Below, piece after piece: positions 1 through 13,600 of a stretch of DNA of 64,000 nt. The DNA is taken from assembly GCA_965219915.1 (NCBI GenBank), contig OZ244794.1, positions 579,343-643,342 of the forward strand, in the 5' to 3' direction. Origin of the DNA: Rhodothermales bacterium (GTDB lineage: Bacteria; Bacteroidota; Rhodothermia; Rhodothermales; Bin80). The notes under the pieces were generated by a model, which worked only from the letters and a program-made list of their open reading frames with translations, was not told the DNA's origin and made no database searches. The position numbers and the translations under genes are program-made. The first letter of the stretch is position 1; every line of letters starts with the position of its first letter.

Positions 1-561
1 CGGATTGAAAAGAAAGCGGAATCAGCTCCTCCTGTTCAGTTCAACTTCTCTTTGAAATGTTGAGAAAGACCAATAAATCTATCTCAACCGTGCATAACCT
101 GTACTAAATCACCGGGACATCTGCGGACGCTCCCCCTCACACAATCACTTATTGATCTATTTCTACCTTCGGCTCACTCATGCTGCACCCCCTACGATAA
201 GCTCACGAAAGGTGAGGTCTTCACCAAAGACACCTGTTTGAGTCTTTGATGGCTCTTCCGTGCTGGGTTACATTGGACCGCCTGATCTATTTCCCATCCT
301 CTACCTCAGGCGATGCAAGTTAAACAGATGCCGATCTTACCGACGCTTATAGATCCATTTCTCCGATGCTGCACGAACGACCCCTTGTGGCACGATGTCT
401 CTGGCCATCGCAACCATACGAGGGTATTGAAACAAGTCAAGGGGAAATGAATCAAGGCGGATTTGATGGGTCTCTTGATGTGATTCAGTTAGTGCTCTCT
501 CACAAGGATTAATTGATGGTGGCAGCAATTATATAGGAGGGCCCCTTGACTCATCTCTTCA

Positions 562-762
562 TCACGGCCTTCCAGACTTGTTTTTTGTTGGATCAACGAG
601 GTTGTATGTTCTCCCTGGCTTACTTGATGGAGGCAATGTTTTGTTTTTACTTACCGTGATTTCACGTCCGGGTCCGCCACGAGGACCTATTTCTTGGTAC
701 TGTCCAGAAGCTGGAGCTTTTTCTCCCGGGTTGAGTCCTTGGGTTTTTTTATTTTTGGGCAT
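562..762 (-). CDS. YjzC-like small protein (about 66 aa from the internal ATG at 762; the ORF track extends to a TTG at 864)
   Basis: Translation MPKNKKTQGLNPGEKAPASGQYQEIGPRGGPGREITVSKNKTLPPSSKPGRTYNLVDPTK matches the GxKAPxSGxY ... LPP ... VDPTK pattern I associate with YjzC-family proteins. I checked the ATG at 760-762 (minus strand) in the sequence. The family call is from memory and was not searched. Confidence 0.5.
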   Translation of the reverse strand: MPKNKKTQGLNPGEKAPASGQYQEIGPRGGPGREITVSKNKTLPPSSKPGRTYNLVDPTKNKSGRP

Positions 763-916
763 TAGGAGATTAGAGGTAGTGACTCGGGATTGCGTTACCA
801 TAGAGAAGCCATGATGATCCCCTGATAGGTAATTCTGTTCATATTGTTCCGTTAAATTCCGCAAATTTGTTTTCTTGAAATGTATTTAGAAATCTCGCGG
901 TGCACACGCGCGGATC

Positions 917-1567
917 ATGGTAAAATGTGTGGGGATTATATCACTTAATGAATCAACTGGACAGCCTACACAAAAGCCTTTCGCTCTTTATGAGAAATTT
1001 ATTGGTGCGTCATCTGACAAAGGCGACCTCGTACTTAATCCTTACTGCGGTTGTACGAGCACCTGGGTAGTTCCTGAATGGCTTGAAAGGCAATGGGTAG
1101 GCATGGACATCTGGGACGGATCCAAAGGAGTCTTGTTCAAGCGTCTGGAGAAAGAGGACATGATCATAGACGGGAGCATGGAAATTGGAGGCCAGCAGCC
1201 TCTATTCCCGAAAGACATCACGTTCACGACTGAATTGCCCGAACGCACGGATGAAAAGCAAGCTGCCGTCCCATTCCTACGCGCGAAGGAACGAGTCACA
1301 GAACCTGAGGGACCGAAGTGGACACGTACAAAAATGTACGGCCATCTGATCGACCGAAAAGGCTGTGAATGCCAATGATGCGAGTGTGAGTCCGATGACA
1401 AGTGTTACCTGCAAATGAATCATATTACATCTTGGTCCGACGTCGGACCGAATCATATTAGTAATCTAGTGTTGCGTTGTGTTCCGTGTAACCGGCTGAA
1501 AAGCAACGTATTTGCACTTTCCGGTCTACGGAGAGAGAACAGAAAACGTGGCTACATGGTCACATGA
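917..1567 (+). pseudogene. Relic of a beta-class N4/N6 DNA methyltransferase with a C-terminal HNH module; 5-prime truncated and interrupted by an in-frame TGA at 1376-1378
   Basis: GQPTQKPFALYEKFIGASSDKGDLVLNPYCGCTSTWVVPEWLERQWVGMDI corresponds to the (H/Y)PTQKP ... DPFCGCGTT ... GRxWIGIDI block of PF01555-type methylases. The upstream DPPY catalytic motif is absent and motif I is degenerate. The same frame continues past the TGA as CECESDDKCYLQMNHITSWSDVGPNHISNLVLRCVPCNRLKSN, an HNH signature (Cys pairs, H-N-H spacing), up to the stop at 1565-1567. Confidence 0.65.
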
Positions 1568-1574
1568 GAATACC

Positions 1575-1964
1575 ATGGATAATTATATGCAGACTATTAT
1601 TACCGTTGCGCTGACACTTATAGGGACACTATTGAGCGTCGGATTTGGAGCATGGATAAATAATAGATCGATCAGAAAAAGGGATGAGAGATTAATAAAA
1701 TTGGATGTATTAAAACGTCTTATGTCGTATAGATTCGTCCTCTCTGATGAATGGCGCAAACTTCGAAGGGATGATAGTGCTGAATTGATTGAATTTCATT
1801 GTGCTTTAAATGAGGTAGTAATAGTATTCCATTCAAACAAGGATATTATATCAATACTAAAGTCTTCTTGGGACGGTTGCGAAAAAGAGAAATTGAATCG
1901 TTTGCTTGAAAAAATGTGCGACGATTTGAGAATACCAATTACGGGACAGCCAAATTTTATATGA
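1575..1964 (+). CDS. Small single-pass membrane protein, hypothetical (possibly DUF6680-like)
   Basis: From the ATG at 1575 the translation is MDNYMQTIITVALTLIGTLLSVGFGAWINNRSIRKRDERL..., an N-terminal TM helix followed by a helical soluble part. The coding stretch is AT-rich. The TTG start at 1512 in the ORF track would overlap the HNH relic. The DUF6680 resemblance is a weak recollection. Confidence 0.45.
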   Translation: MDNYMQTIITVALTLIGTLLSVGFGAWINNRSIRKRDERLIKLDVLKRLMSYRFVLSDEWRKLRRDDSAELIEFHCALNEVVIVFHSNKDIISILKSSWDGCEKEKLNRLLEKMCDDLRIPITGQPNFI

Positions 1965-2015
1965 TCAATCGGGACAGGATTTGTATTATCCCAGATCCAT
2001 ATCCTTCATAGACAA

Positions 2016-2291
2016 ATGAAAATCACAGCAAAACTTTTGATTAAGGAAATAGAAGAGATGGGGTTTAGAATTTGGCGGACTGGTCTCGTGAATGGAGAAA
2101 TTGTGATAAAAAAGAGATTTTATGATCCAGAAGAGATTGGAGATTTTCAAAAGCGTCTTATTGCTCATTTGAATGAAAAGTATCCTGATTTAGAGCTGAA
2201 TCAAAAGGATTTTGGTCTGTCATGGAAGAAGATTCCTCATCTTTTAGATCGTAGTAGTAGTCTCACTTTCACTACTCATAAAATATTGTAA
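2016..2291 (+). CDS. Hypothetical protein, 91 aa
   Basis: ATG-initiated ORF with protein-like composition (MKITAKLLIKEIEEMGFRIWRTG...) in an AT-rich islet. I recognised no motif. Confidence 0.35.
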   Translation: MKITAKLLIKEIEEMGFRIWRTGLVNGEIVIKKRFYDPEEIGDFQKRLIAHLNEKYPDLELNQKDFGLSWKKIPHLLDRSSSLTFTTHKIL

Positions 2292-2911
2292 ATAATTATG
2301 GATACACACGTACTATAATTCCCAGCAACTCTCCGAAGTATTGATACAACCGATATTGATAAAAAAATTTCCAACTTCCCTCTTGGGGGATACCATTACC
2401 CTGCAGGTTCATCTTCGTCTGGATCATAGCCGAATTCGTGGATCAGCTTCCCATCGTGTTTCCGTTCCATCCAGTCTTCAAAATATTCTTTAAATTGACA
2501 ATCCGCACATTCTTCATTATCATTGTGGCACGTGTCTTGAGTCAGTTATACGTACGCCCTCATAGCATATTGATCACCATCACACCCGGTGCGTAATGTG
2601 GAAGTACGAGTGCTTCCGTAGATGATGGCGTTGGCTCGCAACTGGTCAAGAGAAGAGTTTTCCAAGTTTCCGGGTTATTCGAGCACCGGACGATTCTCTG
2701 TGGTACTTCGCTGGTATCCGCACGGGAATCCCACATAGTCGTGATGCCTTGCGTGGACATTGTCTCATTGTGAGTTGAAGTTTACGGCTGGAGATAATCG
2801 GCGGAATTCCCAACATTCAACTTAAATGGAACGTCGCGAATGTAGGTGTTTGAATTTCAAATTGCCGGCTCACTTCGCCCGGAATTGGTGGCTCACTTGG
2901 TCGGAATATGC

Positions 2912-3091
2912 AATCAGTGCCTCTGATTGGAACATGGTGCATTTTGAGCAGGCTCCGGGGGATTTTCATGTCTTTGGAATTATTGTCAGGTCGGGCATTT
3001 TGCCCCCAGGTTCCCCGTTGGTGCATGGGAAGTACTAATGATAGCCGACGCCCGATCTTTCCGTGAAGCGATTACTGGTACTGACCGTCGT
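2912..3091. repeat. Copy A of an unclassified ~180-bp element, immediately 3-prime of the 636-aa gene
   Basis: Aligns by eye with 5481-5656 at roughly four-fifths identity. Long identical blocks include gcctctgattgga, tgcattttgagc, gtcaggtc, gttggtgcatgggaag, atagccgacgccc and tgaagcgattactg. The conserved hairpin caatcag-tgcct-ctgattg lies at 2911-2929. Confidence 0.7.
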
Positions 3092-3244
3092 AGCAGTTCA
3101 TTGTTCGGCTCGTCTACCAGTCCGGCAGTGCCGAATCATTTGATGTATCACAAAATCGCGATCCAATGTAAACAAATGCGGGTGAGGTAAAGGCGTACTA
3201 CTTTACCCAAACCCGGATTGGTGTCACATCAGAAGAAGTATGCC

Positions 3245-5155
3245 CTACGGTCCAAGCCTCCCCTGTTCTGTCTTGACTTTCTGTAACAAGAGTTCAAGCT
3301 CCTTGCGAATGACCCCGATTCCTCGACTTACTTCTTTATTGAGTTCTTGGATCGTGTCAGACAGATCTGTCATACATTGGTGCCGATGGTGGGCAAGTTG
3401 ATCCCGTTTTTCTGTAATAAATATCTGCCAGCCATTTTCAAGATCTTTGCGTTGCTTTTCAAACGAACCGAGCATTTCTCTTACACGAATAATTCCTTCT
3501 TCTGTATAAAGCATGAGCTGTAGAAACTGTACTGCCCTTTCTCCAGTCAACTCCTTCTGGGGAGATGTTTCAATGATTCGTGCTGCCTCGGATTCTAAAT
3601 GCCGAACACGTCGATAGGATTGACTGATTAGTTCTTGTAATGAAAGCTTTAGATCTCTCCTCAAAACAAAGCGTTTCCACATTGGAATTCTTTTGAGAAA
3701 CGACAGCCTGTCGTTTAACTCGGTCAGTGACGAATTCAGCAATGCTCGTGCTTCCTCAGAGTTGATTCGGTAAATGTTTCTACGTTGAATAACTACATCG
3801 CTACACTGTTGCTCCAGCTCATTCTTGCATGTCTCCGCAAGCCGTTTGAGCTTATCTGTTTGGTCTTGAACCGACGATTTGAATTTCTGTCGAGAATCTT
3901 CCTGCAGGGACTGAATTTTCTTTTCGCTTTCCTCAGACGCTTTGTCATATTCTCTGACGGCATTTATCAAAGGCTTCTTCTTGAGTCTATTTGAGCTGAG
4001 CCGGCCTACTATGCTGCCTGCAATTCCACCGATAATTCCACAGATAGTAGTGCCAATACCAGGAAATATGATCGTTCCAACTCCTGCTCCCGTAGCTAAG
4101 CCTGCACCTCCACCAATAGCTGTGGTAGAGACATCCAAACCCAAATTCTTGGCTGCATGACGGAGGTCCGTCTTTTGAGCTTGAAGTAGTCGAATTTCCC
4201 GCCAGCCGGATGAGGCCAACGTGATTAGAGGAATGCCACCACCCACTATGTCCACATTACCCAAGAGCCCATCGCTCACGGCTTCAGCATGCTCACCCAT
4301 GCCTGCACGGGATAGCTCACTGTCCACCAATACAATTCCTTGCCTTCCCTCATGAACAGCCTCCTCCAACTGTTCAAAGGAGTCTTCTGTGTTGAGATAG
4401 ATCGCATCTTCGGGGATCCCAGCCATATCCCCCGGTACAATCACGGGAATATGAGGGTATTTATCAAAATGATCCGCCAATGAACTTGCATCAGCGACTG
4501 TCTTAACGTTTACGAAATATTCACCGTTTAAGACCAAGTCATACCCTTCTTGATTTGAAATATCTGGCATCTCAACCTGATAACCGAGTTCTATCAAATT
4601 CTCGGCAACGATTGGCTCACTCAAATGCCCCATGAGTTTGTAAACTGCCGCCTGTGGAAGCGGCTCTCCGATTTCAGCAGATTCCCAACTGGCCAAATGC
4701 TTACTCAGATCTCCGATCGTAACAAGTTGCTCACCTGCAAGTGTTCCCATTGCAGTATATAAATGCTCATCTATCTCCATCAGATTCTGGATGGCATCCA
4801 TGCCAAACAACGTACCCTGCGTCGCCCCTTCAATCGTAGTACATGCGACTTCGTTGGAGACATCAGGCATGGAGAAGGAAGATTTTGCACTAGTGGGAGA
4901 AGATGATTTTGTAGATTCTTCTCCAGAAACAGGCTTTTCAAGAAACTCAATCAAGTGCTTTTGGTGTTCCTTGGCGTCTGTTGTCGCAGCGGCCCCTGAT
5001 ATAGGCTCTCCAAAACGTTCAATCAAGTGCATTGCGCCCAAATCTGGCACAAACTCAGGCCTATGAATCAGGCTTGCAACGTTCTTTCTAGTTCGAAATA
5101 TCCATACAGAAATGCCGATTGCTGCGAATATTCCAATCAACGATGCGATCAACAT
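3245..5155 (-). CDS. Hypothetical membrane protein, 636 aa: N-terminal anchor, PD-(D/E)xK-like core, glycine-zipper hairpin, C-terminal coiled coil
   Basis: A long uninterrupted ORF. The segments are the anchor MLIASLIGIFAAIGISVWIF-RTRK, a core GHLSEPIVAENLIELGYQVEMPDISNQEGYDLVLNGEYFVNVKT, and a glycine zipper TTAIGGGAGLATGAGVGTIIFPGIGTTICGIIGGIAGSIVG. The last ~240 aa are charged and heptad-rich. Confidence 0.8.
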   Translation of the reverse strand: MLIASLIGIFAAIGISVWIFRTRKNVASLIHRPEFVPDLGAMHLIERFGEPISGAAATTDAKEHQKHLIEFLEKPVSGEESTKSSSPTSAKSSFSMPDVSNEVACTTIEGATQGTLFGMDAIQNLMEIDEHLYTAMGTLAGEQLVTIGDLSKHLASWESAEIGEPLPQAAVYKLMGHLSEPIVAENLIELGYQVEMPDISNQEGYDLVLNGEYFVNVKTVADASSLADHFDKYPHIPVIVPGDMAGIPEDAIYLNTEDSFEQLEEAVHEGRQGIVLVDSELSRAGMGEHAEAVSDGLLGNVDIVGGGIPLITLASSGWREIRLLQAQKTDLRHAAKNLGLDVSTTAIGGGAGLATGAGVGTIIFPGIGTTICGIIGGIAGSIVGRLSSNRLKKKPLINAVREYDKASEESEKKIQSLQEDSRQKFKSSVQDQTDKLKRLAETCKNELEQQCSDVVIQRRNIYRINSEEARALLNSSLTELNDRLSFLKRIPMWKRFVLRRDLKLSLQELISQSYRRVRHLESEAARIIETSPQKELTGERAVQFLQLMLYTEEGIIRVREMLGSFEKQRKDLENGWQIFITEKRDQLAHHRHQCMTDLSDTIQELNKEVSRGIGVIRKELELLLQKVKTEQGRLGP

Positions 5156-5480
5156 TGGTTATCTAAATGCCTTCTTTAATTATTGTCGATACGTCTTGTG
5201 AGCTGCCCTATTTTCGCTCTCGCAGGCCTCGATGCATTGAACACAGGTCCTGTCAATGTCTAAAACTATAGAGTACATCCCGTGCTACTTAATCCAACGC
5301 ATCCGACAAAAGCCAGTATAGCAAGCGCCGCGCCACCGAGTATACTCACTCAGCAATATCCCAATAAATTCGTCAAAATCCCCTGCAAGTATAATTCATT
5401 CGTGATCATAAATTGTGGCAAGTTCGTCTCTGATTCGGATTAGCTTTGACGCGTAGAGTAAGTGATTCAATCGGTGGGGT

Positions 5481-5656
5481 AATCAGAGCCTCTGATTGGA
5501 GCGTGTTGCATTTTGAGCGCGGCTCGGGGGGATTTTGAAATCTGAGGAACCATCGTCAGGTCAAGCGTTCAGCCTCCAGTTTCCCTGTTGGTGCATGGGA
5601 AGCACAAAAAATAGCCGACGCCCCGATGTTTACTTGAAGCGATTACTGAGCGTCGT
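5481..5656. repeat. Copy B of the ~180-bp element, in the 715-bp region 5-prime of the 636-aa gene and at the islet/core boundary
   Basis: Same orientation as copy A and the same conserved blocks. The hairpin aatcag-agcct-ctgatt is retained. It ends in the local hairpin cgtcg-tgct-cgacg. Confidence 0.7.
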
Positions 5657-5870
5657 GCTCGACGAGGAAACTACAGCACAGCCCTAAGCATTGATGGAGC
5701 AAATTGAGGAATAAGGGGAGATGATCATCATGCTACTAAACCTGAACATCTACCGTTTAGACTGAACGCATATGCTCACTCGAAACACCTTTCATCTAGT
5801 CTAGAATTCTAGAATCTCCGGATATGTCTACAGACTGGACAATCCCCCGAATGCTGTGATGAAAATACGG

Positions 5871-7202
5871 CTACCTGGCTGTCAAATTCTGTCCATCCCA
5901 GCTAACGGTCTTTTCCATTTCCAGCGAAGAGTTGATCATGTGAGCACACGCGGCGGCATGATGTCCTACCTCTGCGTTTTCCTTGGTAGCGCTGCCGTTT
6001 CGTATCGCATCCAGCCATTCCTGAATATGAGCAAGGATGGATGATTGTCCTTCGGAGTAGTAAACTTCTTCACCGGCCACAGTTGCCTGGGGGCGGCTGG
6101 AGGGCATTTCCTCAAGGCGAACGGCTGGATCGGCAATGTAGGCGTCTGCCAAGTCCTTTGGCCAGCTGTCGGTGATCCAGCCATTGCCCTCGTTAACACG
6201 CTCAGGGATGAAGCGCAGTCCTCCTCCAAACACCAGGGAGCCTTCCGTACCCAGAATACGCATACCACCACCGCTGCCTCCCTGATTATTGAAGGTGCCG
6301 CTCAGGCTCACCATAAAGCCATCCCGGTACTTCAGTGATGCATTAATGGTGTCAGGTACATCGCGGGAGCGGGTCCAGCGATACAACCCGCCCATAGCCA
6401 TAACGCTCTCAGGGATTTGAGCACCCATTACGTAATTGATGGTCGTGCATGTGTGGACATACAGATCAGTGGACATGCCGCCTGAATAGTCTTTGTAGCA
6501 GCGCCAGCGGAAGAAGCGTTCAGGGCTGTATGGTCGCTTGGGTGCTGAGCCAAGGAACAGATCCCAGTCGACGGTTTTCGGCGAGGCGTCTGGCGGTATC
6601 GGGTATATCCATGCGCCGGAAGCAGTGTTGCGATTCACGCTTGCGCGTACCATGGTGACTTGCCCAAGTTTTCCCTCCCGGATCATCTGGCGTGCCTTTT
6701 GGGCAAGCATGCCGTTGGGTCCGGGGCTACCCACCTGTACGGCAAGGTTGTGCTTCTTTTGCGCTTCAATGATGTCCAACCCTTCCTCAATAGAGTAGGT
6801 GAGCGGCTTTTCAATGTAAGCGTGCTTGCCCGCGTTGAGCGAATCAACAGAGTGCCGATAATGCCAGTGATCAGGACTGGATATCACAACCGCGTCAATG
6901 TCACTGCGGTTGATGATTTCCCGGTAGTCCGCCATCACGTCAGCCTTTCGGTCTGTTCGGTCCCTCATACGAGACAGTCGTCCCGTGTAAGCGTCGCAGG
7001 CAGCCACGATCTCCACTTCGGGAAACTGCTTGAAAGCTTCGACCAGTTGATGTGCTCTGGCTCCTGCCCCAATCATGCCGATCGTGATACGATCACTTGG
7101 AGCCACAACCGCAGGACGCGCTGAACCCAGAGCAAGTCCGGCGGTGCCAATTGCACCGGCGCGCATAAAATCACGCCGGGAAACTAAAAAACGTCGAGCC
7201 AT
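5871..7202 (-). CDS. Gfo/Idh/MocA family oxidoreductase with twin-arginine signal
   Basis: The N-terminus MARRFLVSRRDFMRAGAIGTAGLALG is a Tat motif. It is followed by the Rossmann block ITIGMIGAGARAHQL and EKP in YIEKPL, typical of the family. Confidence 0.9.
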   Translation of the reverse strand: MARRFLVSRRDFMRAGAIGTAGLALGSARPAVVAPSDRITIGMIGAGARAHQLVEAFKQFPEVEIVAACDAYTGRLSRMRDRTDRKADVMADYREIINRSDIDAVVISSPDHWHYRHSVDSLNAGKHAYIEKPLTYSIEEGLDIIEAQKKHNLAVQVGSPGPNGMLAQKARQMIREGKLGQVTMVRASVNRNTASGAWIYPIPPDASPKTVDWDLFLGSAPKRPYSPERFFRWRCYKDYSGGMSTDLYVHTCTTINYVMGAQIPESVMAMGGLYRWTRSRDVPDTINASLKYRDGFMVSLSGTFNNQGGSGGGMRILGTEGSLVFGGGLRFIPERVNEGNGWITDSWPKDLADAYIADPAVRLEEMPSSRPQATVAGEEVYYSEGQSSILAHIQEWLDAIRNGSATKENAEVGHHAAACAHMINSSLEMEKTVSWDGQNLTAR

Positions 7203-7213
7203 TGCCAGGGAGG

Positions 7214-8212
7214 TTACATGATTGGAATTAGTACGAGATTTCTGTACAGGACACGGCCGTGATCCCCTTGAAGATAAATGGGGCCGGGTGAGGCTTCGTC
7301 GGCTGTCATGGCGCCACCAGTCACACCGAGAACAGGTTCATTGTCAATGATCTTCGTTCCGTTCAGAATCACCGTGAGGTGGCGCTGATAGAGGGTAATG
7401 TCCATTGATTGCCATTCACCGGCCGGCTTCTCCGCGCTGGCTGAAGGTTTGATTCTGCTGTAGAGGCCCCCCATGTGATGACTGTCCAAGTCCATTCCGT
7501 AAGTGTCTGCAACCTGAATTTCATAGATGCCGCGTAGATAAACACCGCTGTTGCTGCCCTCGGGCACATTCACATCCAGCGTCAGACGAAAGTCCTCAAA
7601 GGTGGCATCCGTACGCAGATTTCCGTAACTGATATGCTCACCGTTCTCCGGTTGCACCGGATCGTTAACGAGCATGCCCTCTTCGGCTTTAAAACCGTTG
7701 GTTTGCTGGTCGTTGATTATACTCCATCCGGTAAGATCTTCGCCGTTGAACAGCTCAATGGGTTCTCTATAGGTTGCCTGCGAGAGATCTGGTGCAGGAG
7801 GCAGTTCGGGAATCCGCGCTGCCTCAAACTCTATTACACGGGTACCGATTGCAGATCGGTTTGGAAAATATGCCGTACCTGACAGGCGGTCGCCATCAGG
7901 CTTGAGTTTGAGCGTATTGGTGAGGATGTGCCTCCGTGTACTTCCGTCTTCAAGCTCTCTGTTGACGGCTTGTGTTCTCGTGACGGTCAGTACATCACCG
8001 GTGACGTTTACACTTGCCACAGGGAGTACGCTGCCGCCATACCAGAGAAGAGATGCATCCAGTATTCCCTGATCTTGGGTGACTTCCAGCCAGCCAGCCC
8101 CACCGGGCAGGTACAGGGTCCACCTACCTTCAAAGGCGGATATATTGTCCTGGGCAGTGGCTGAAACTGCAATAAGGGATAAGAAAACTGAGAGGGTTAG
8201 TCGCGAAAGCAT
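7214..8212 (-). CDS. DUF1080 (3-keto-disaccharide hydrolase-like) domain protein, secreted
   Basis: It has a signal peptide. The C-terminal half (DLTGWSIIND ... FEDFRLTLDVNVPEGSNSGVYLRGIYEIQV ... LTVILNGTKII ... GPIYLQGDHGRVLYRNLVLIPI) matches the DUF1080 jelly-roll pattern. Confidence 0.8.
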   Translation of the reverse strand: MLSRLTLSVFLSLIAVSATAQDNISAFEGRWTLYLPGGAGWLEVTQDQGILDASLLWYGGSVLPVASVNVTGDVLTVTRTQAVNRELEDGSTRRHILTNTLKLKPDGDRLSGTAYFPNRSAIGTRVIEFEAARIPELPPAPDLSQATYREPIELFNGEDLTGWSIINDQQTNGFKAEEGMLVNDPVQPENGEHISYGNLRTDATFEDFRLTLDVNVPEGSNSGVYLRGIYEIQVADTYGMDLDSHHMGGLYSRIKPSASAEKPAGEWQSMDITLYQRHLTVILNGTKIIDNEPVLGVTGGAMTADEASPGPIYLQGDHGRVLYRNLVLIPIM

Positions 8213-9169: not shown

Positions 9170-10531
9170 TTACTCGTAATCCCATTTGAGAATCCAGGGA
9201 TCGCCCGTGTTCTGCTGATATGCGCGCAGTCTATTCTGATAGTCTTCCAAAATAGGCTGATGGGCAGGATCTCCGGCAAGATTATGGACTTCGTGCGGGT
9301 CATTCTCGAGATCGTACAATTCAAACCTCGGCCGTTCAAGGTAGTTCTTAACGGGTCGTTTGCCGTAGTGTGTCAGTCCTCTCGATAGTGTTGCCTGCCA
9401 AGTCTCTGAGGCCCAGAGATCAGTGGCAAAAGGATAGGGTAGGCCGTGAGCAATATTCCAGATGAGTTTGTAGCGACGTCCCCGGACTACTCGCATGGGG
9501 TAATACATTGTGACCTCATGGAAGGTATGTGAAGCAAAGACCTCATTCCAACCCTCGGTTGAGCTTTTCGTCATTGCATTCTTGAAGCTGCGACCGTGCA
9601 TGGTTGGGGCTTCCGAAATCACGCCTGCCAGATCCAGGAGGGTTGGCGACAGGTCGGCCCAAGTCACCATAGCATCACAGACCCCAGGGGTTACATCAGG
9701 TCGCCGGATAACGCACGGCAGACGCATACCGGGTTCGTAGAGTGTGGTCTTTGCCCCTGGAAAAGCCACGCCGTTGTCTGAAATAAACACGACGACCGTA
9801 TTCTCCCATTTACCTGAGCTTTGGAGGAGTTCAATCAAACGCAAGAGACCGCGGTCGGCACGTTGCACTGACATATAGTAGCGCGCAAGTTCTCTTCGGG
9901 TTTCGGGCAAATCCGGTAAATAGTCGGGCACGAGTACCTCGTCGGGCGATACAGGATCACTTCCGTCTCGTACAAAGGGCCGGTGCGGTTCACTGGTGCA
10001 GAAGTACAGGAAGAAAGGACGGCCATCTTCTTGATCAAAAATGGATGCGCAGGCCTCTGCACGCTCCATAGGTGAGGTGCGGGCAGCCGTAATTTCTTCC
10101 TCAAACGCATAAACAGAGGGGGGTGCAACATGGTACTTACCCGTTCTCACAGTACGGTATCCTGCACGACGCAGAAGCGTTGGCAGCGATTGCACATGGT
10201 CGAAGGTTTTGAAATGATGGAAAGAATGCATGTGGCCGTACTGCCCGTTAGCATGGTTATAGAGACCGCTCAATATGACAGATCGGCTGGCACTGCAGGA
10301 TGCCGTAGTACAGAAGCCATGGGTAAATCGTGTGCCGTGCTCGGCCAGATGGTCCAGCCCTGGCGTCTTGATCACGGGATTACCGTAACAGCCGGCGTCA
10401 TTCGTTCCTTGGTCATCCACGACAACCATTACAATATTTGGTTGTTGACGCGTGGTGAACTTGCCCGCCAGTACTGCACTGGCAGATAAAGTTTGAAGGA
10501 AGGACCTGCGTGTGAGGTGTCTGTCTTGCAT
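9170..10531 (-). CDS. Sulfatase (formylglycine-dependent), Tat-exported
   Basis: RRSFLQTLSASAVLAG is the Tat motif. It is followed by PNIVMVVVDDQG and CSASRSVILSGLY, the C-x-A/P-x-R sulfatase signature. Confidence 0.9.
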   Translation of the reverse strand: MQDRHLTRRSFLQTLSASAVLAGKFTTRQQPNIVMVVVDDQGTNDAGCYGNPVIKTPGLDHLAEHGTRFTHGFCTTASCSASRSVILSGLYNHANGQYGHMHSFHHFKTFDHVQSLPTLLRRAGYRTVRTGKYHVAPPSVYAFEEEITAARTSPMERAEACASIFDQEDGRPFFLYFCTSEPHRPFVRDGSDPVSPDEVLVPDYLPDLPETRRELARYYMSVQRADRGLLRLIELLQSSGKWENTVVVFISDNGVAFPGAKTTLYEPGMRLPCVIRRPDVTPGVCDAMVTWADLSPTLLDLAGVISEAPTMHGRSFKNAMTKSSTEGWNEVFASHTFHEVTMYYPMRVVRGRRYKLIWNIAHGLPYPFATDLWASETWQATLSRGLTHYGKRPVKNYLERPRFELYDLENDPHEVHNLAGDPAHQPILEDYQNRLRAYQQNTGDPWILKWDYE

Positions 10532-10616: not shown

Positions 10617-13600
10617 ATGCCTACTACCCGTGAAGCATCAAAGATAACCTTGCACAGAGGAGGTATTAGCGCTTTGGTTGTGCTTGTGATATTCTGTGTG
10701 CAGTGTGGATCTAATCCACAGGGGCCAATGCAATCGATTAATGAAGGAGATCACATTGTGCTAATTGGCAACAATTTGTGCTCGCGCATGATGAATTTTG
10801 GGTATTTTGAAACGGAATTGCATCTGCGGTTTCCAGAGCACAAGCTAACAATCAGGAACATGTGCGATGGAGGCAATACTCCGGGTTTTCGGCCGCATCC
10901 GGGCCGTGTTTCTCCATGGGCTTTTCCTGGAGCAGACAGCTTCTACACGGAACTGGCACAGCCCTCCAACAGTCAGGGGCATTTCGAGACGCCCGATGAG
11001 TGGCTGACGCGATTGCAGGCCGATGTGATTGTGGCTTTCTTCGGCTTCAACGAATCCTTCGCCGGCCTTGAGGGAGTAGATGCCTTTGAATCAGAACTGG
11101 AGGCATTCGTCCAGCATACGCTTTCCCAATCTTACAACGGAGAGGGTGCGCCTGATCTCGCACTGGTATCTCCGATAGGCTTTGAGGATCTGACGCATGT
11201 ACTGGATGTACCTGACGGTAAGCAGGAGAATGTTAATCTGGCGGCCTACACAGAAGCCATTCAGCGTGTGTCGCAGCGTCATGGCCTCCCTTTTGCTGAC
11301 GTCTTCTCGGCTTCCAGAAGGTGGTATAGACGTACGACGGAGCCGCTTACCATTGACGGTTCACAGCTCAATGAAGGAGGATATGTCTTGTTGGCAGAAA
11401 GTCTGACGGATCAGTTGTTTGGGGGTAGTCGAGTGCTTGACGATCAGGAACGTGTCCATTTGCTGGCTGCCGTAAGAGACAAGAATTGGCATTGGCACAA
11501 CGATTTCAAAATCCCGAACGGCGTGCATGTGTATGGGCTTCGGTATAACCCGTTTGGACCGGACAACTATCCGGCAGAACTGGAAAAGATTAGTCAGATG
11601 ACCGCGATTCGGGATACCGCAGTTTGGCGGGTTCTAGCGGGAACTACTATGGATCTGGGAGCAGCCGATGCGCGGACGCGCGAGCTGCCTGAGGTGGTTA
11701 CTAACTACACTCCTAGCAACAAGAACGGGGACCCTGGTTATCGTTATGGAGAGGAGGCCTTAGCGACGCTCACTACTGCGCCTGGATACGAGATAGCGTT
11801 GTTCGCATCCGAAGTAGAGTTTCCCGACTTAGCGAATCCGGTTCAGATGTCATTTGATAATCAGGGCCGTCTGTGGGTATCGGTTATGCCCAGTTATCCG
11901 CACTGGAGGCCGGGAGATCCGCCTCCCAATGATAAGCTTCTGATCTTGGAAGACACAGATCAGGATGGAATGGCAGACCGGCAGATTGTATGGGCAGACG
12001 GTCTGCATCTCCCGGTTGGATTTGAATTCGCTCCGGAAGGGGTATATGTAAGCCAGGGTACCAATCTCGTACTGCTCTCAGATACCGACGGGGATGATCA
12101 TGCAGACACGCAGCAGACCATACTGAGTGGTTTTGACGATCACGATACGCATCATGTAATCAGCGCATTTGTGGCAGATCCATCCGGAGCCATCTATATG
12201 GGGGAAGGGGTATTTTTGCATTCAAACGTGGAGACATCGTATGGTCCGGTTCGAGGAACGAATGGGGGATTCTATCGCTACAACCCGCAACGACGCCACC
12301 TCGAACGCACTGCGCAACTGTCCATTCCCAATCCCTGGGGAATTGCTTTTGATGAATGGGGACAGCCTTTCTTCGCGGAAACTTCCGGTCCAGATGTACG
12401 CTGGATGTCCCCCGGAAGCCTTAAGCCACGTTATGGTGTGGCGACACATAAATCATATAACCTGATTGAGGATGCCCATCGCGTGCGTCCTACTTCGGGG
12501 TTAGAGTTCGTACACAGTCGACATTTCCCAGACGAAACGCAGGGGGACCTGTTGATCAACAACACGATTGGGTTCCTGGGGATGAAACAGCACACGATGG
12601 CGGATGACGGGACTGGATACATCAGTACGCATCGACATGATCTAGTTCAGAGTACCGATGGGAACTTCCGTCCTGTAGATATGGAGTTCGCCCCAGATGG
12701 TTCGCTTTACTTCGTTGACTGGCACAATGTGCTGATCGGTCACATGCAGCACAATGCACGCGATCCCCTGCGCGACCATGTTCATGGCCGGATCTATCGA
12801 ATTACGTATCCATCAAGGCCTCTGGTTGAGCCTGCCAGAGTAGCAGGAGCTGGCATTGATGAATTGCTGGAGAATCTGACGTTACCGGAGTATCGCACCC
12901 GGTACCGAACGCGTCGGGAACTACGCGGTCGTGCGCCCTCAGAAGTCTTGCCTCGCTTGGACATCTGGATGGCAGATCTGGACCCGGATGAAGAGAGATA
13001 CGAACATCATCTTTTGGAGGCCCTCTGGGTAACCTGGGGATTGAATCAGGTGGATGAAGCACTTTTGGAGCGGTTGTTGGGTGCGAGGGATTTCCGGGTT
13101 CGTGCTGCTGCCGTTCGTGTACTTCGATACAATCCACAGCTGGGAAGGCAGATAGAACTGCTTACAGAAGCAGCAGATGATTCGAATGGTCGTGTTCGTC
13201 TTGAAGTGATGGCGGCCGCTTCTTGGCTGGAACCCGAACAAGGGCTACCCATTGTTGAAAAAGCAAGTCAGCGCACACTGGATAGGTGGAACATGAATGT
13301 TTCCGTAACGGCTATAGCTCATTTGCGAGGTCAGCGTGTGCAGTCTGATCGGCCCGAAGAAGAAATGCCTGAACTGGAAGGTTCGGACCTGGAGCTGTTT
13401 ACCGCTGGTAAGGAGATTTATGGGCGCGATGGGTATTGCATTACCTGCCATAGGCCCGATGGCAAGGGGTTGCCGGCATCGGGCTTTCCTCCATTGGCCG
13501 GCACAGACTGGGTATTGGGGGATTCAGAGCGCCTGATCAAGGTCACATTGGATGGTCTCATCGGACCTATGGAAGTGTTGGGCGAGAGTTATCCGGGTCA

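Follow-up and report, generated by a model that had tools for sequence, protein, structure and literature searches.

An intact gene for a predicted five-part membrane protein

The window analysed here, a stretch of 64,000 nucleotides from a Rhodothermales bacterium (GenBank assembly GCA_965219915.1, contig OZ244794.1, positions 579,343 to 643,342 of the forward strand), carries at positions 3245-5155 of its minus strand an open reading frame (ORF) for a protein of 636 amino acids (aa). From the sequence of the window alone, an initial annotation had presented this protein as an orphan that combined a nuclease-fold-like core with a glycine-zipper hairpin and a long coiled coil, and as a candidate for a single-gene abortive-infection or conflict effector. 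We found that the ORF is a real, intact gene under purifying selection and that its product is no orphan, having 35 close homologs and 796 cluster representatives in wider searches. It belongs to a widespread and undescribed family of membrane-anchored proteins, the members of which probably are accessory defence or conflict effectors. The gene and the parts of its product, with the evidence used for each assignment in brackets, are as follows:

3245-5155, minus strand: complete ORF with ATG start, 636 aa and stop codon, the latter at 3245-3247 (ORF list, homologs, dN/dS)
5093-5155, minus strand: residues 1-21, N-terminal hydrophobic membrane anchor, then RTRK (hydropathy, conservation, model)
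4799-5092, minus strand: residues 22-119, variable Ser/Thr-rich linker, of low confidence or unstructured in the model (pLDDT, alignment, dN/dS)
4649-4798, minus strand: residues 120-169, conserved helical pre-core, NL..IDEHVY.AM..L.G.QL..IGDL (conservation, dN/dS)
4256-4648, minus strand: residues 170-300, PD-(D/E)xK-like core (predicted topology, invariant residues)
4127-4255, minus strand: residues 301-343, connector helices into the membrane segment, IP.IT...S..REIRLL...KN.G.D (conservation)
4004-4126, minus strand: residues 344-384, glycine-zipper hairpin with an invariant P365-G-x-G368 turn between two hydrophobic arms rich in Gly and Ala (composition, hydropathy, profiles)
3248-4003, minus strand: residues 385-636, basic juxtamembrane stretch (R385...KKK) and long helical-bundle tail with a conserved RLG motif at its end (model, charge, conservation)

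The single long ORF is thus intact and begins with ATG, as annotated. When the gene was compared with four orthologs, the ratio of nonsynonymous to synonymous substitution rates (dN/dS) was 0.24-0.36 over its whole length, with values of 0.09-0.20 for the pre-core and core (0.09-0.14 for the pre-core alone), 0.25-0.80 for the linker and 0.35-0.55 for the glycine zipper, and with the linker, zipper and tail taken together at 0.35-0.8. Its dN was approximately threefold that of four housekeeping neighbours at a similar dS (~0.3). Such a pattern points to a gene that is kept but changes more quickly than those around it, which is usual for accessory and conflict genes. The stretch is also AT-richer than its surroundings, in agreement with the annotation, having a GC content of 0.43-0.51 across the gene and 0.35-0.44 just downstream, compared with 0.52-0.57 in the flanking metabolic genes. 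Matches in a scan for sigma-70 promoters and terminators around the gene were no commoner than in shuffled sequence and were discarded, the promoters of this phylum probably not being covered.

The architecture of the protein is conserved and consists of five parts, being the N-terminal anchor, the variable linker, the helical pre-core with the alpha/beta core, the glycine-zipper hairpin and the helical tail. AlphaFold2 models built on the family alignment had predicted local distance difference test scores (pLDDT) of 65 for the full-length protein and 70.6 for the core only. The hydrophobic anchor followed by RTRK that had been assigned to residues 1-21 was confirmed; this segment, MLIASLIGIFAAIGISVWIF, has a Kyte-Doolittle 19-residue mean of up to 2.45, is modelled as a helix (residues 1-30 in the full-length model, pLDDT 87) and is conserved, together with a following basic residue, at the N-terminus of the 636-aa type in the alignment. 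By the positive-inside rule, the anchor is predicted to lie N-out, C-in. Since basic residues follow both hydrophobic elements (RTRK after the anchor and R385...KKK after the hairpin), the same rule would place the linker, core and tail on the cytoplasmic side.

The linker is variable in both length and sequence, with a pLDDT of about 30-57, and its Ser/Thr-rich section was correctly recognised at residues 75-100, where Ser and Thr make up 46% of a poorly conserved segment with a pLDDT of about 30. In the pre-core, for which short helices are modelled at residues 106-162, D129, Q143 and L150 are invariant in the family alignment; an equivalent segment also precedes the core in the shorter and longer variants of the protein discussed below. 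The connector has invariant residues at P309, T312, S316, L323, T329, N337 and D341, and falls within a poorly modelled stretch (residues 293-386, with a connector pLDDT of <50) that takes in the Gly-rich hairpin. Tail helices were modelled at residues 394-461, 466-488, 500-529 and 552-634 with a pLDDT of 80-90, with R591 invariant and W493, R569, E573 and G635 nearly so. Of the charged, heptad-rich long coiled coil originally proposed for this region, the charge was evident (35% charged residues over 387-636), but the heptad pattern was weak, with a strong a/d pattern in 17% of 28-residue windows, and the model shows an antiparallel helical bundle instead of one long coiled coil.

A core domain resembling PD-(D/E)xK enzymes

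Four residues in the core had been proposed to match the signature of restriction-endonuclease-fold proteins. All of them are found in the translation where they had been placed, with residues 180-218 reading EPIVAENLIELGYQVEMPDISNQEGYDLVLNGEYFVNVK and the codons located as follows:

4616-4618, minus strand: E180
4538-4540, minus strand: D206
4508-4510, minus strand: N216
4502-4504, minus strand: K218

The AlphaFold2 prediction gave this domain the topology alpha-beta-beta-beta-alpha-beta-alpha-beta-alpha at a pLDDT of 70-90, formed by helix 168-189, strands 194-195, 207-209 and 213-217, helix 223-232 and strand 238-241, followed by a further helix, strand and helix. In this model, E180 is found in helix 1, D206 at strand 2 and N216-V-K218 on strand 3. 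Across 121 diverse representatives of the family, G176, E180, D206 and K218 were the only core residues that were 100% invariant, and position 216 was occupied by either N (98) or Q (23), never by an acidic residue or anything else. The residues of the E...D...(N/Q)xK motif are thus under absolute constraint, and because of this family-wide invariance combined with the low dN/dS we consider the motif features to be more than chance. There is a precedent for the amide in the sequence of Escherichia coli Mrr, FE...GIDG...VQAK, which has a QxK variant of the site; we take Mrr to be an active enzyme and its QxK motif to be catalytic.

Profile and structure comparisons pointed to the same superfamily. 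The Pfam family PDDEXK_5 was matched in the same register in 8 of the 21 close members and 4 of the 8 distant relatives, at best E-values of 0.0028-0.099 and always under its 26.1-bit cut-off, with Mrr_cat (E 0.016-0.062) and pPIWI-associated REase also among the sub-threshold matches. A Foldseek search with the full-length model was swamped by coiled coils, and the domain model was then searched against PDB and BFVD. The top PDB neighbour of the core was I-Ssp6803I (probability 0.98, 57 columns), followed by CdiA-CT tRNase (115 columns), EcoRV, Hjc, Mus81, R2 endonuclease and DdmD. Among the BFVD neighbours, those with names were PD-(D/E)XK, VRR-NUC and Holliday-junction-resolvase proteins, the resolvases being those of phages, superimposing with a root-mean-square deviation (rmsd) of 1.9-3 Å over 47-60 residues. 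The proposed nuclease-like fold is supported by topology, invariant residues and the identity of the closest structural neighbours, but not by any significant sequence or fold match, and we consider it likely, judging from the model, that the core has a PD-(D/E)xK-type fold.

Charge distribution and the glycine-zipper hairpin

The core is strongly acidic, with a net charge of -20 over residues 170-300, i.e. -15.5 per 100 aa, compared with 0 to -9 for six neighbouring proteins. This is a family-wide property, the median net charge being -16 over about 133 aa and 98% of the members, Bacillales forms included, having -8 or less. The tail has the opposite sign, with net +9 in the window protein and a net basic charge in 88% of family members (median +8). 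Such a conserved pairing of acidic head and basic tail suggests that the protein either inhibits itself electrostatically or binds a basic partner. In terms of substrate, either the basic tail would supply the binding, in the way of the separate DUF4041 surface of SNIPE (see below), or tail and core would form an autoinhibitory pair, or the domain would bind something that is not nucleic acid.

The dense glycine zipper annotated at residues 344-384 was borne out, these 41 residues having 34% Gly and not a single charged residue. Its hydropathy (19-residue) was 1.4-2.1 in every one of the 28 homologs aligned, a range that would suffice for insertion into a membrane, and the hydrophobic arms are about 21 and 16 residues long. 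Both the repeated GxxxG pattern and the P365...G368 turn are kept in each of these homologs and in the distant types, and we consider the hairpin a conserved and probable membrane element as judged from these properties. The window protein scored below the Pfam gathering thresholds for Gly-zipper_Omp (15.2 bits, cut-off 25) and YMGG (11.9, cut-off 28.9); several homologs have precomputed matches to PF13488, PF13441 or PF20721, and C19orf12 was matched with E 1e-4 at locus L029 (homolog-carrying loci are given L numbers throughout). Further matches of the hairpin were to the Gly-zipper parts of the PADLOC models LeoB and LeoBC and to phage tape-measure PHROGs. Glycine zippers are oligomerisation and channel motifs.

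A widespread family with split and fused relatives

A word-indexed search gave 35 relatives, most of them full length and 91-25% identical to the window protein, from metagenome-assembled genomes (MAGs) of Rhodothermaceae, Bacteroidota and Chthonomonadales; where named at all, they are called 'hypothetical' or 'glycine zipper domain-containing'. In an exhaustive search of the representatives of 50%-identity clusters, a profile of core residues 120-345 matched 796 representatives at E <= 0.001, of which 573 at E <= 1e-10. Most of the 796 are 600-640 aa in length and have the core at about residues 100-330, and this constant position indicates that the whole architecture is conserved. In a species-level scan of genomes, carriers of the 636-aa type belonged to Rhodothermales, Latescibacterota, Terriglobia, Chthonomonadales and Chromatiales. 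The window protein is not covered above threshold by any model in Pfam, NCBIfam or PADLOC, in line with the earlier failure to recognise any named defence family, and literature searches gave no description of the family or of a Gly zipper combined with a PD-(D/E)xK core.

Bacillales, Campylobacterota and Proteobacteria have variants that are shorter or longer. These distant relatives retain the pre-core, the core (with QVK), the Gly-zipper hairpin and a shorter tail, and come in two other architectures. The short type, of 424-441 aa, is found in Bacillales and a Spirochaete and is preceded at seven loci (L027, L030, L031, L033, L034, L039 and L040) by a conserved gene that overlaps it by a few bases. 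This upstream partner at gene position -1 is 300-524 aa long and has hydrophobic hairpins, the longer versions having about 200 aa of coiled coil in addition. In the long type, of 725-1043 aa, found in Sulfurimonas, Arcobacteraceae and Pseudomonadales, the partner module forms an N-terminal fusion (loci L029, L032, L036 and L038, where it makes up the N-terminal 345-435 aa). Fused module and separate partner matched each other at E 1e-57 to 6e-8 by BLASTP and at E 1e-67 to 4e-17 by profile. A 767-aa protein from a Paracoccus plasmid may also be of the long type. One relative of 1043 aa in an Arcobacteraceae MAG (L032, 8672-11803) carries C-terminal leucine-rich repeats (LRR_8, E 6e-18) after its partner-like module, core, zipper and tail; such repeats are typical ligand-sensing add-ons in immune proteins.

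The occurrence of the same pair as either split or fused suggests, by comparison of the sequences, a two-component system. The partner module has a weak likeness to JukA/YaaW (PADLOC E 7e-6 to 0.017; HMMER pairwise P about 2e-5 against E. coli YaaW), with an hhalign probability of 5% for the link to JukA. Being paired with or fused to a JukA-like module in its distant relatives, the module represented by the window protein looks like an effector. In 6 of 8 distant relatives the core was furthermore matched by the PADLOC candidate PDC-M72B over about 120 positions (E 9e-10 to 6.5e-5).

As regards habitat, the labels of some carriers (L015, L019, L021 and L022, e.g. SB0664_bin, RHO3_bin and Plut_) resemble those of series of sponge- or coral-associated MAGs. 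Carriers with those labels span Rhodothermales, Bacteroidota, Terriglobia and Latescibacterota, and their proteins are 38-44% identical across phyla. Horizontal transfer would fit such cross-phylum likeness within one habitat. No relatives were found in the phage genomes or viral contigs searched, a result that is silent on the target of the protein; with zero relatives there and only one on a plasmid, we rejected a phage or plasmid origin.

Genomic neighbourhoods of the homologs

The gene is solitary, relocates between genomic sites and often adjoins defence or mobile genes. When 385 neighbouring ORFs from 35 loci were clustered, no partner common to the 636-aa type was found. Synteny with the window was seen for L008, the closest relative on a long contig (81% aa identity), and the more distant orthologs sit at other sites. 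In a raw count of the sampled loci, roughly a third to half have defence or mobile genes no further than about four genes from the homolog, with examples as follows:

L021: DISARM DrmB and DrmA immediately downstream of the homolog
L026: complete type I restriction-modification set, the methylase gene ending 28 bp before the homolog
L002: GmrSD, Fic, several transposases and a ThiF/JAB pair near the homolog
L003: E2, E1-JAB and AAA_15 ATPase near the homolog
L005: end of a relaxase, type IV secretion system (T4SS) and coupling-protein module, with the homolog after the T4SS coupling-protein gene on the same strand
L006: PDDEXK_4 and HTH/M78 genes near the homolog
Locus not assigned: Type IIG, PDC-S01 and PDC-S19 matches near homologs

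About half of the loci have metabolic or housekeeping surroundings. The association with defence or mobile DNA is thus real but partial.

At two loci (L003, 11886-16245, and L024, 11763-16180), a Multi_ubiq/Prok-E2_E gene begins 5 bp downstream of the homolog and is followed by genes for JAB-ThiF (E1) and an AAA_15/AAA_21 ATPase. Bacterial ubiquitin-like conjugation operons of this E2/E1-JAB kind are linked to defence. As a functional partner the operon was rejected, its only recurrence being in the near-identical lineage of L024. A gene for an AAA_14/DUF4143 ATPase was also seen a few genes away from the homolog at three otherwise unrelated loci (L003, 6212-7459; L047, 5541-6689; L049, 7265-8515). 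Decayed copies were present in three Rhodothermales MAG chromosomes, comprising a 430-aa ORF covering residues 204-635 only, a match without an intact ORF and a 137-aa fragment (L014, L023 and L041). Such truncated and disrupted copies indicate recurrent gene loss.

The low-GC islet and its flanking repeats

In the window, an islet with low GC (0.35-0.47) and few genes covers positions 1-5870 and runs off the start of the window; the gene is situated at its edge. The claim that it had no metabolic neighbours was wrong on the upstream side, where a Gfo/Idh/MocA oxidoreductase gene starts 715 bp away and is followed by sugar and sulfatase genes. The other features of the islet are:

917-1378: methyltransferase relic, the C-terminal third of a DpnA-like N6/N4 DNA methyltransferase (E 3e-6)
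1415-1567: weak HNH-like remnant (PacI, E 0.1)
1512-1964: 150-aa ORF with a hydrophobic segment, one of the small ORFs of the islet without detected relatives
2912-3077, plus strand: left copy of a 168-nt direct repeat, 98% identical to the counterpart copy in L008
5481-5648, plus strand: right copy of the 168-nt direct repeat, inside the 715-bp upstream intergenic region (sequence comparison)

Of the methyltransferase-HNH relic described earlier, the DpnA-like C-terminal fragment was recovered, but the HNH remnant had weak support. The flanking repeats were verified as two direct copies, 81.5% identical to each other, that bracket the gene. Both copies are also found around the L008 ortholog (12057-12245 and 9487-9699), and the repeat holds small hairpins (e.g. 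AATCAG...CTGATT). There was no other copy in the window and none in two metagenome pattern scans; with no Rfam match, weak covariation in four copies and zero metagenome matches, we rejected the repeat as a known RNA or dispersed element. It could be left over from the insertion or recombination by which the gene arrived, or could serve in local regulation.

In L008, the equivalent islet is about 8 kb long and lies between a Gfo/Idh/MocA gene and an AP_endonuc_2 gene, and a low-GC downstream stretch is likewise present. Window positions 1-2881 are 94-96% identical to L008 at the nucleotide level, compared with 87.7% for the block 2912-8000 that contains the gene and its upstream housekeeping neighbours. 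Going by these identities, the islet may have been exchanged between the two lineages more recently than the surrounding chromosome diverged.

Proposed function and alternative explanations

The features described above are best accommodated, in our view, by a membrane-embedded, cytoplasm-facing PD-(D/E)xK-type enzyme acting as a self-contained conflict effector, a reading based on sequence comparisons to which we would assign a probability of roughly 0.4. The core would then be a metal-dependent phosphodiesterase, most likely a nuclease, held at the inner membrane by the N-terminal helix and the Gly-zipper hairpin, which probably also oligomerise it. Such an arrangement would keep the catalytic core off the chromosome. 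The basic helical tail could bind a substrate or partner, could clamp the acidic core in an inactive state until triggered, or both. We envisage action against invading DNA, either of a phage or a conjugative element, by cutting of nucleic acid entering at the membrane or by abortive infection. In the distant relatives, the same module would be coupled to a weakly JukA/YaaW-like membrane module acting as sensor, a module that the 636-aa type lacks.

Several results weigh against such an effector enzyme. An N or Q stands in for the canonical acidic residue of (D/E)xK, and such strong acidity is unusual in domains that make direct contact with nucleic acid, making unaided binding unlikely. No Pfam match of the core to PD-(D/E)xK families exceeded the cut-off, searches of PDB sequences with two profiles matched nothing but unrelated proteins, at the level of chance (E >= 0.21), and hhalign comparisons with E. 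coli YraN, Mrr and a 120-sequence Mrr alignment, the latter shallow with an Neff of 1.6, gave E 0.16-0.41; the same alignments did place E180 and D206 on the catalytic E and D of the YraN and Mrr partners. At the level of structure, AlphaFold2 confidence was only moderate (pLDDT 65-71) and Foldseek returned no match at E <= 0.001, the lowest values being 0.0066 overall and 0.12 against PDB; the two top-ranked BFVD matches, the sole ones with E <0.1, had rmsd values above 11 Å and no nuclease annotation. The profile of the partner module matched no member of the 636-aa type (E > 0.1), the window protein itself had no PDC-M72B match at E <= 1, and the surroundings of about half of the loci sampled are plainly metabolic or housekeeping in character. 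Nor did literature searches turn up an experiment on any family member.

The initial annotation had assigned the roles the other way around, with a nuclease fold that senses and a Gly zipper that permeabilises. In this version of a single-gene abortive-infection protein, either the nuclease-like domain or the tail would sense infection and the Gly-zipper hairpins would oligomerise into a depolarising pore, the fold not being the killing activity. The hairpin is indeed the one membrane element common to all architectures, including the short forms without an N-terminal anchor, and the profiles that match it most closely come from the Gly-zipper segments of tape-measure proteins, lysins and Gly-zipper membrane families, motifs with an established role in oligomerisation and channels. 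An acidic core is also a poor candidate for direct nucleic-acid binding, and the defence and mobile contexts fit this version equally well. However, the invariance of E180, D206 and K218, and the restriction of position 216 to N or Q in 121 members, look like a working active site, and nuclease-derived sensor domains usually lose their catalytic residues. Since the catalytic-type residues are absolutely invariant, we favour an enzyme over a degenerate sensor. The core is moreover the slowest-evolving part (dN/dS 0.09-0.20, against 0.35-0.55 for the zipper), and the arms, at about 21 and 16 residues, are on the short side for a pair of full transmembrane helices and might just as well form a re-entrant anchor. 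We therefore regard a pore with a nuclease-derived sensor as unlikely.

A role outside defence would make the protein an accessory membrane component, either processing nucleic acid in DNA uptake, conjugation or entry exclusion, or engaged in membrane remodelling or stress in the manner of mitofusins or LeoBC. Its occurrence in many phyla with a stable architecture could be read in that way, as could the ordinary surroundings of about half of the loci, the position of the L005 homolog after a T4SS coupling-protein gene on the same strand and the LeoB/LeoBC and DUF3482 matches that span the hairpin and the start of the tail. Such a role is rather improbable given that there is no synteny across related genomes beyond L008 and no conserved neighbour, that the distribution is patchy with decayed copies in some genomes, and that the gene has a GC content below its surroundings and a dN above its neighbours; the LeoB likeness, too, is confined to the Gly-zipper region, is probably motif-level and comes without a GTPase domain.

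Very unlikely, finally, is that the acidic domain is non-enzymatic, a protein-binding or decoy module capturing, for instance, basic phage DNA-binding or ejected proteins, with its invariant residues needed for folding or cation binding: the extreme and conserved negative charge opposite a basic tail, the lack of a significant match to an active nuclease family and the N/Q in place of the canonical acidic residue would suit it, but the invariant residues fall exactly at the canonical catalytic positions of the fold, the QxK variant is present in Mrr, a restriction enzyme that we presume active, and overall acidity is compatible with a small local substrate site, for which the basic tail could supply binding.

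Returning to the membrane-held effector enzyme, a more far-reaching version can be offered tentatively. The window protein would be the single-gene form of a widespread, undescribed anti-phage or anti-plasmid family, in which an acidic PD-(D/E)xK head is held by the zipper, inhibited by the tail and fired at DNA entry; elsewhere the module would be split from or fused to a JukA-like sensor, in one case with leucine-rich repeats, making up a modular defence superfamily of 'membrane nucleases' that stands apart from SNIPE, Juk and the dynamin-like systems. If true, a function would be gained for about 800 'hypothetical' sequence clusters and for PDC-M72B, with the split and fused JukA-like variants representing a natural dissection of sensor and effector. 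The pairing of acidic head and basic tail suggests an electrostatic autoinhibition that can be tested, and the presence of the two-gene form in cultured Bacillales, such as Fictibacillus arsenicus (L030), makes experiments feasible. The window protein is one among many uncharacterised families associated with defence islands, and a good experimental candidate.

Comparison with known systems

In its predicted structure, the core has in common with PD-(D/E)xK proteins of the Hjc, I-Ssp6803I (PDDEXK_5) and Mrr_cat kinds the alpha-beta-beta-beta-alpha-beta core with E in helix 1, D at strand 2 and xK on strand 3. It differs from that superfamily by the N/Q at the second acidic position, by its high acidity and by the absence of a significant match, and also by its setting in a membrane protein, in which an N-terminal anchor comes before it and a Gly-zipper hairpin and a helical tail of 250 residues come after it. 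PDC-M72 is an unvalidated PADLOC candidate that was absent from the literature searched. The cores of distant short and long members match its component B, the profiles of which have 168-193 positions compared with the 636 aa of the window protein, and the name of the system implies further components.

JukA reportedly is an infection-site sensor that pairs with varied effectors, and uncharacterised PD-(D/E)xK proteins have been noted next to jukA (10.1101/2022.09.17.508391). The likeness to Juk is seen only in the distant relatives, through the weakly JukA/YaaW-like partner module found upstream or fused, whereas neither the window protein nor its 636-aa relatives possess a JukA-like module or neighbour, and the window protein gave no JukB match (PADLOC, E <= 1). 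With the dynamin-like LeoBC/DUF3482 proteins (PADLOC 'Dynamins'), there were LeoB/LeoBC profile matches over residues 320-465 (E 1.7e-8 and 4e-6), taking in the hairpin and the helix after it, and a weak DUF3482 match came from a single homolog. The LeoB/LeoBC matches are limited to profile positions 423-584, the C-terminal membrane region, and the window protein has neither a GTPase domain (Pfam, NCBIfam, E <= 1) nor a LeoA-like neighbour. Membership of LeoB/LeoBC was rejected because the likeness covers the Gly-zipper region only, where tape-measure PHROGs match at comparable E-values, and because there is no GTPase; it probably reflects a generic glycine-zipper hairpin at the level of a motif. 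As judged from these domain and profile comparisons, the window protein fails membership of Juk, LeoABC, SNIPE and PDC-M72B alike.

By analogy, the system that it would work most like is SNIPE, with which it shares no domain. SNIPE is a membrane-bound defence nuclease, for which tethering can give self/non-self discrimination, and has DUF4041 together with a GIY-YIG nuclease, a separate basic surface of DUF4041 binding the DNA (10.1101/2025.11.03.685801). Neither DUF4041 nor GIY-YIG (T5orf172-type) was found in the window protein with Pfam or PADLOC, and there is no homology between the two; SNIPE, on its side, is without the Gly-zipper hairpin and the long helical tail. The analogy is solely one of working principle, comprising an N-out transmembrane anchor and a cytoplasmic nuclease-type domain, both predicted in the window protein, a separate basic region that would bind the DNA, a single gene and, as proposed, the sparing of host DNA by tethering. 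If correct, the family would represent a second solution, unrelated to SNIPE, to self/non-self discrimination by location and not by sequence, with a restriction-enzyme fold and a glycine-zipper hairpin as its building blocks.

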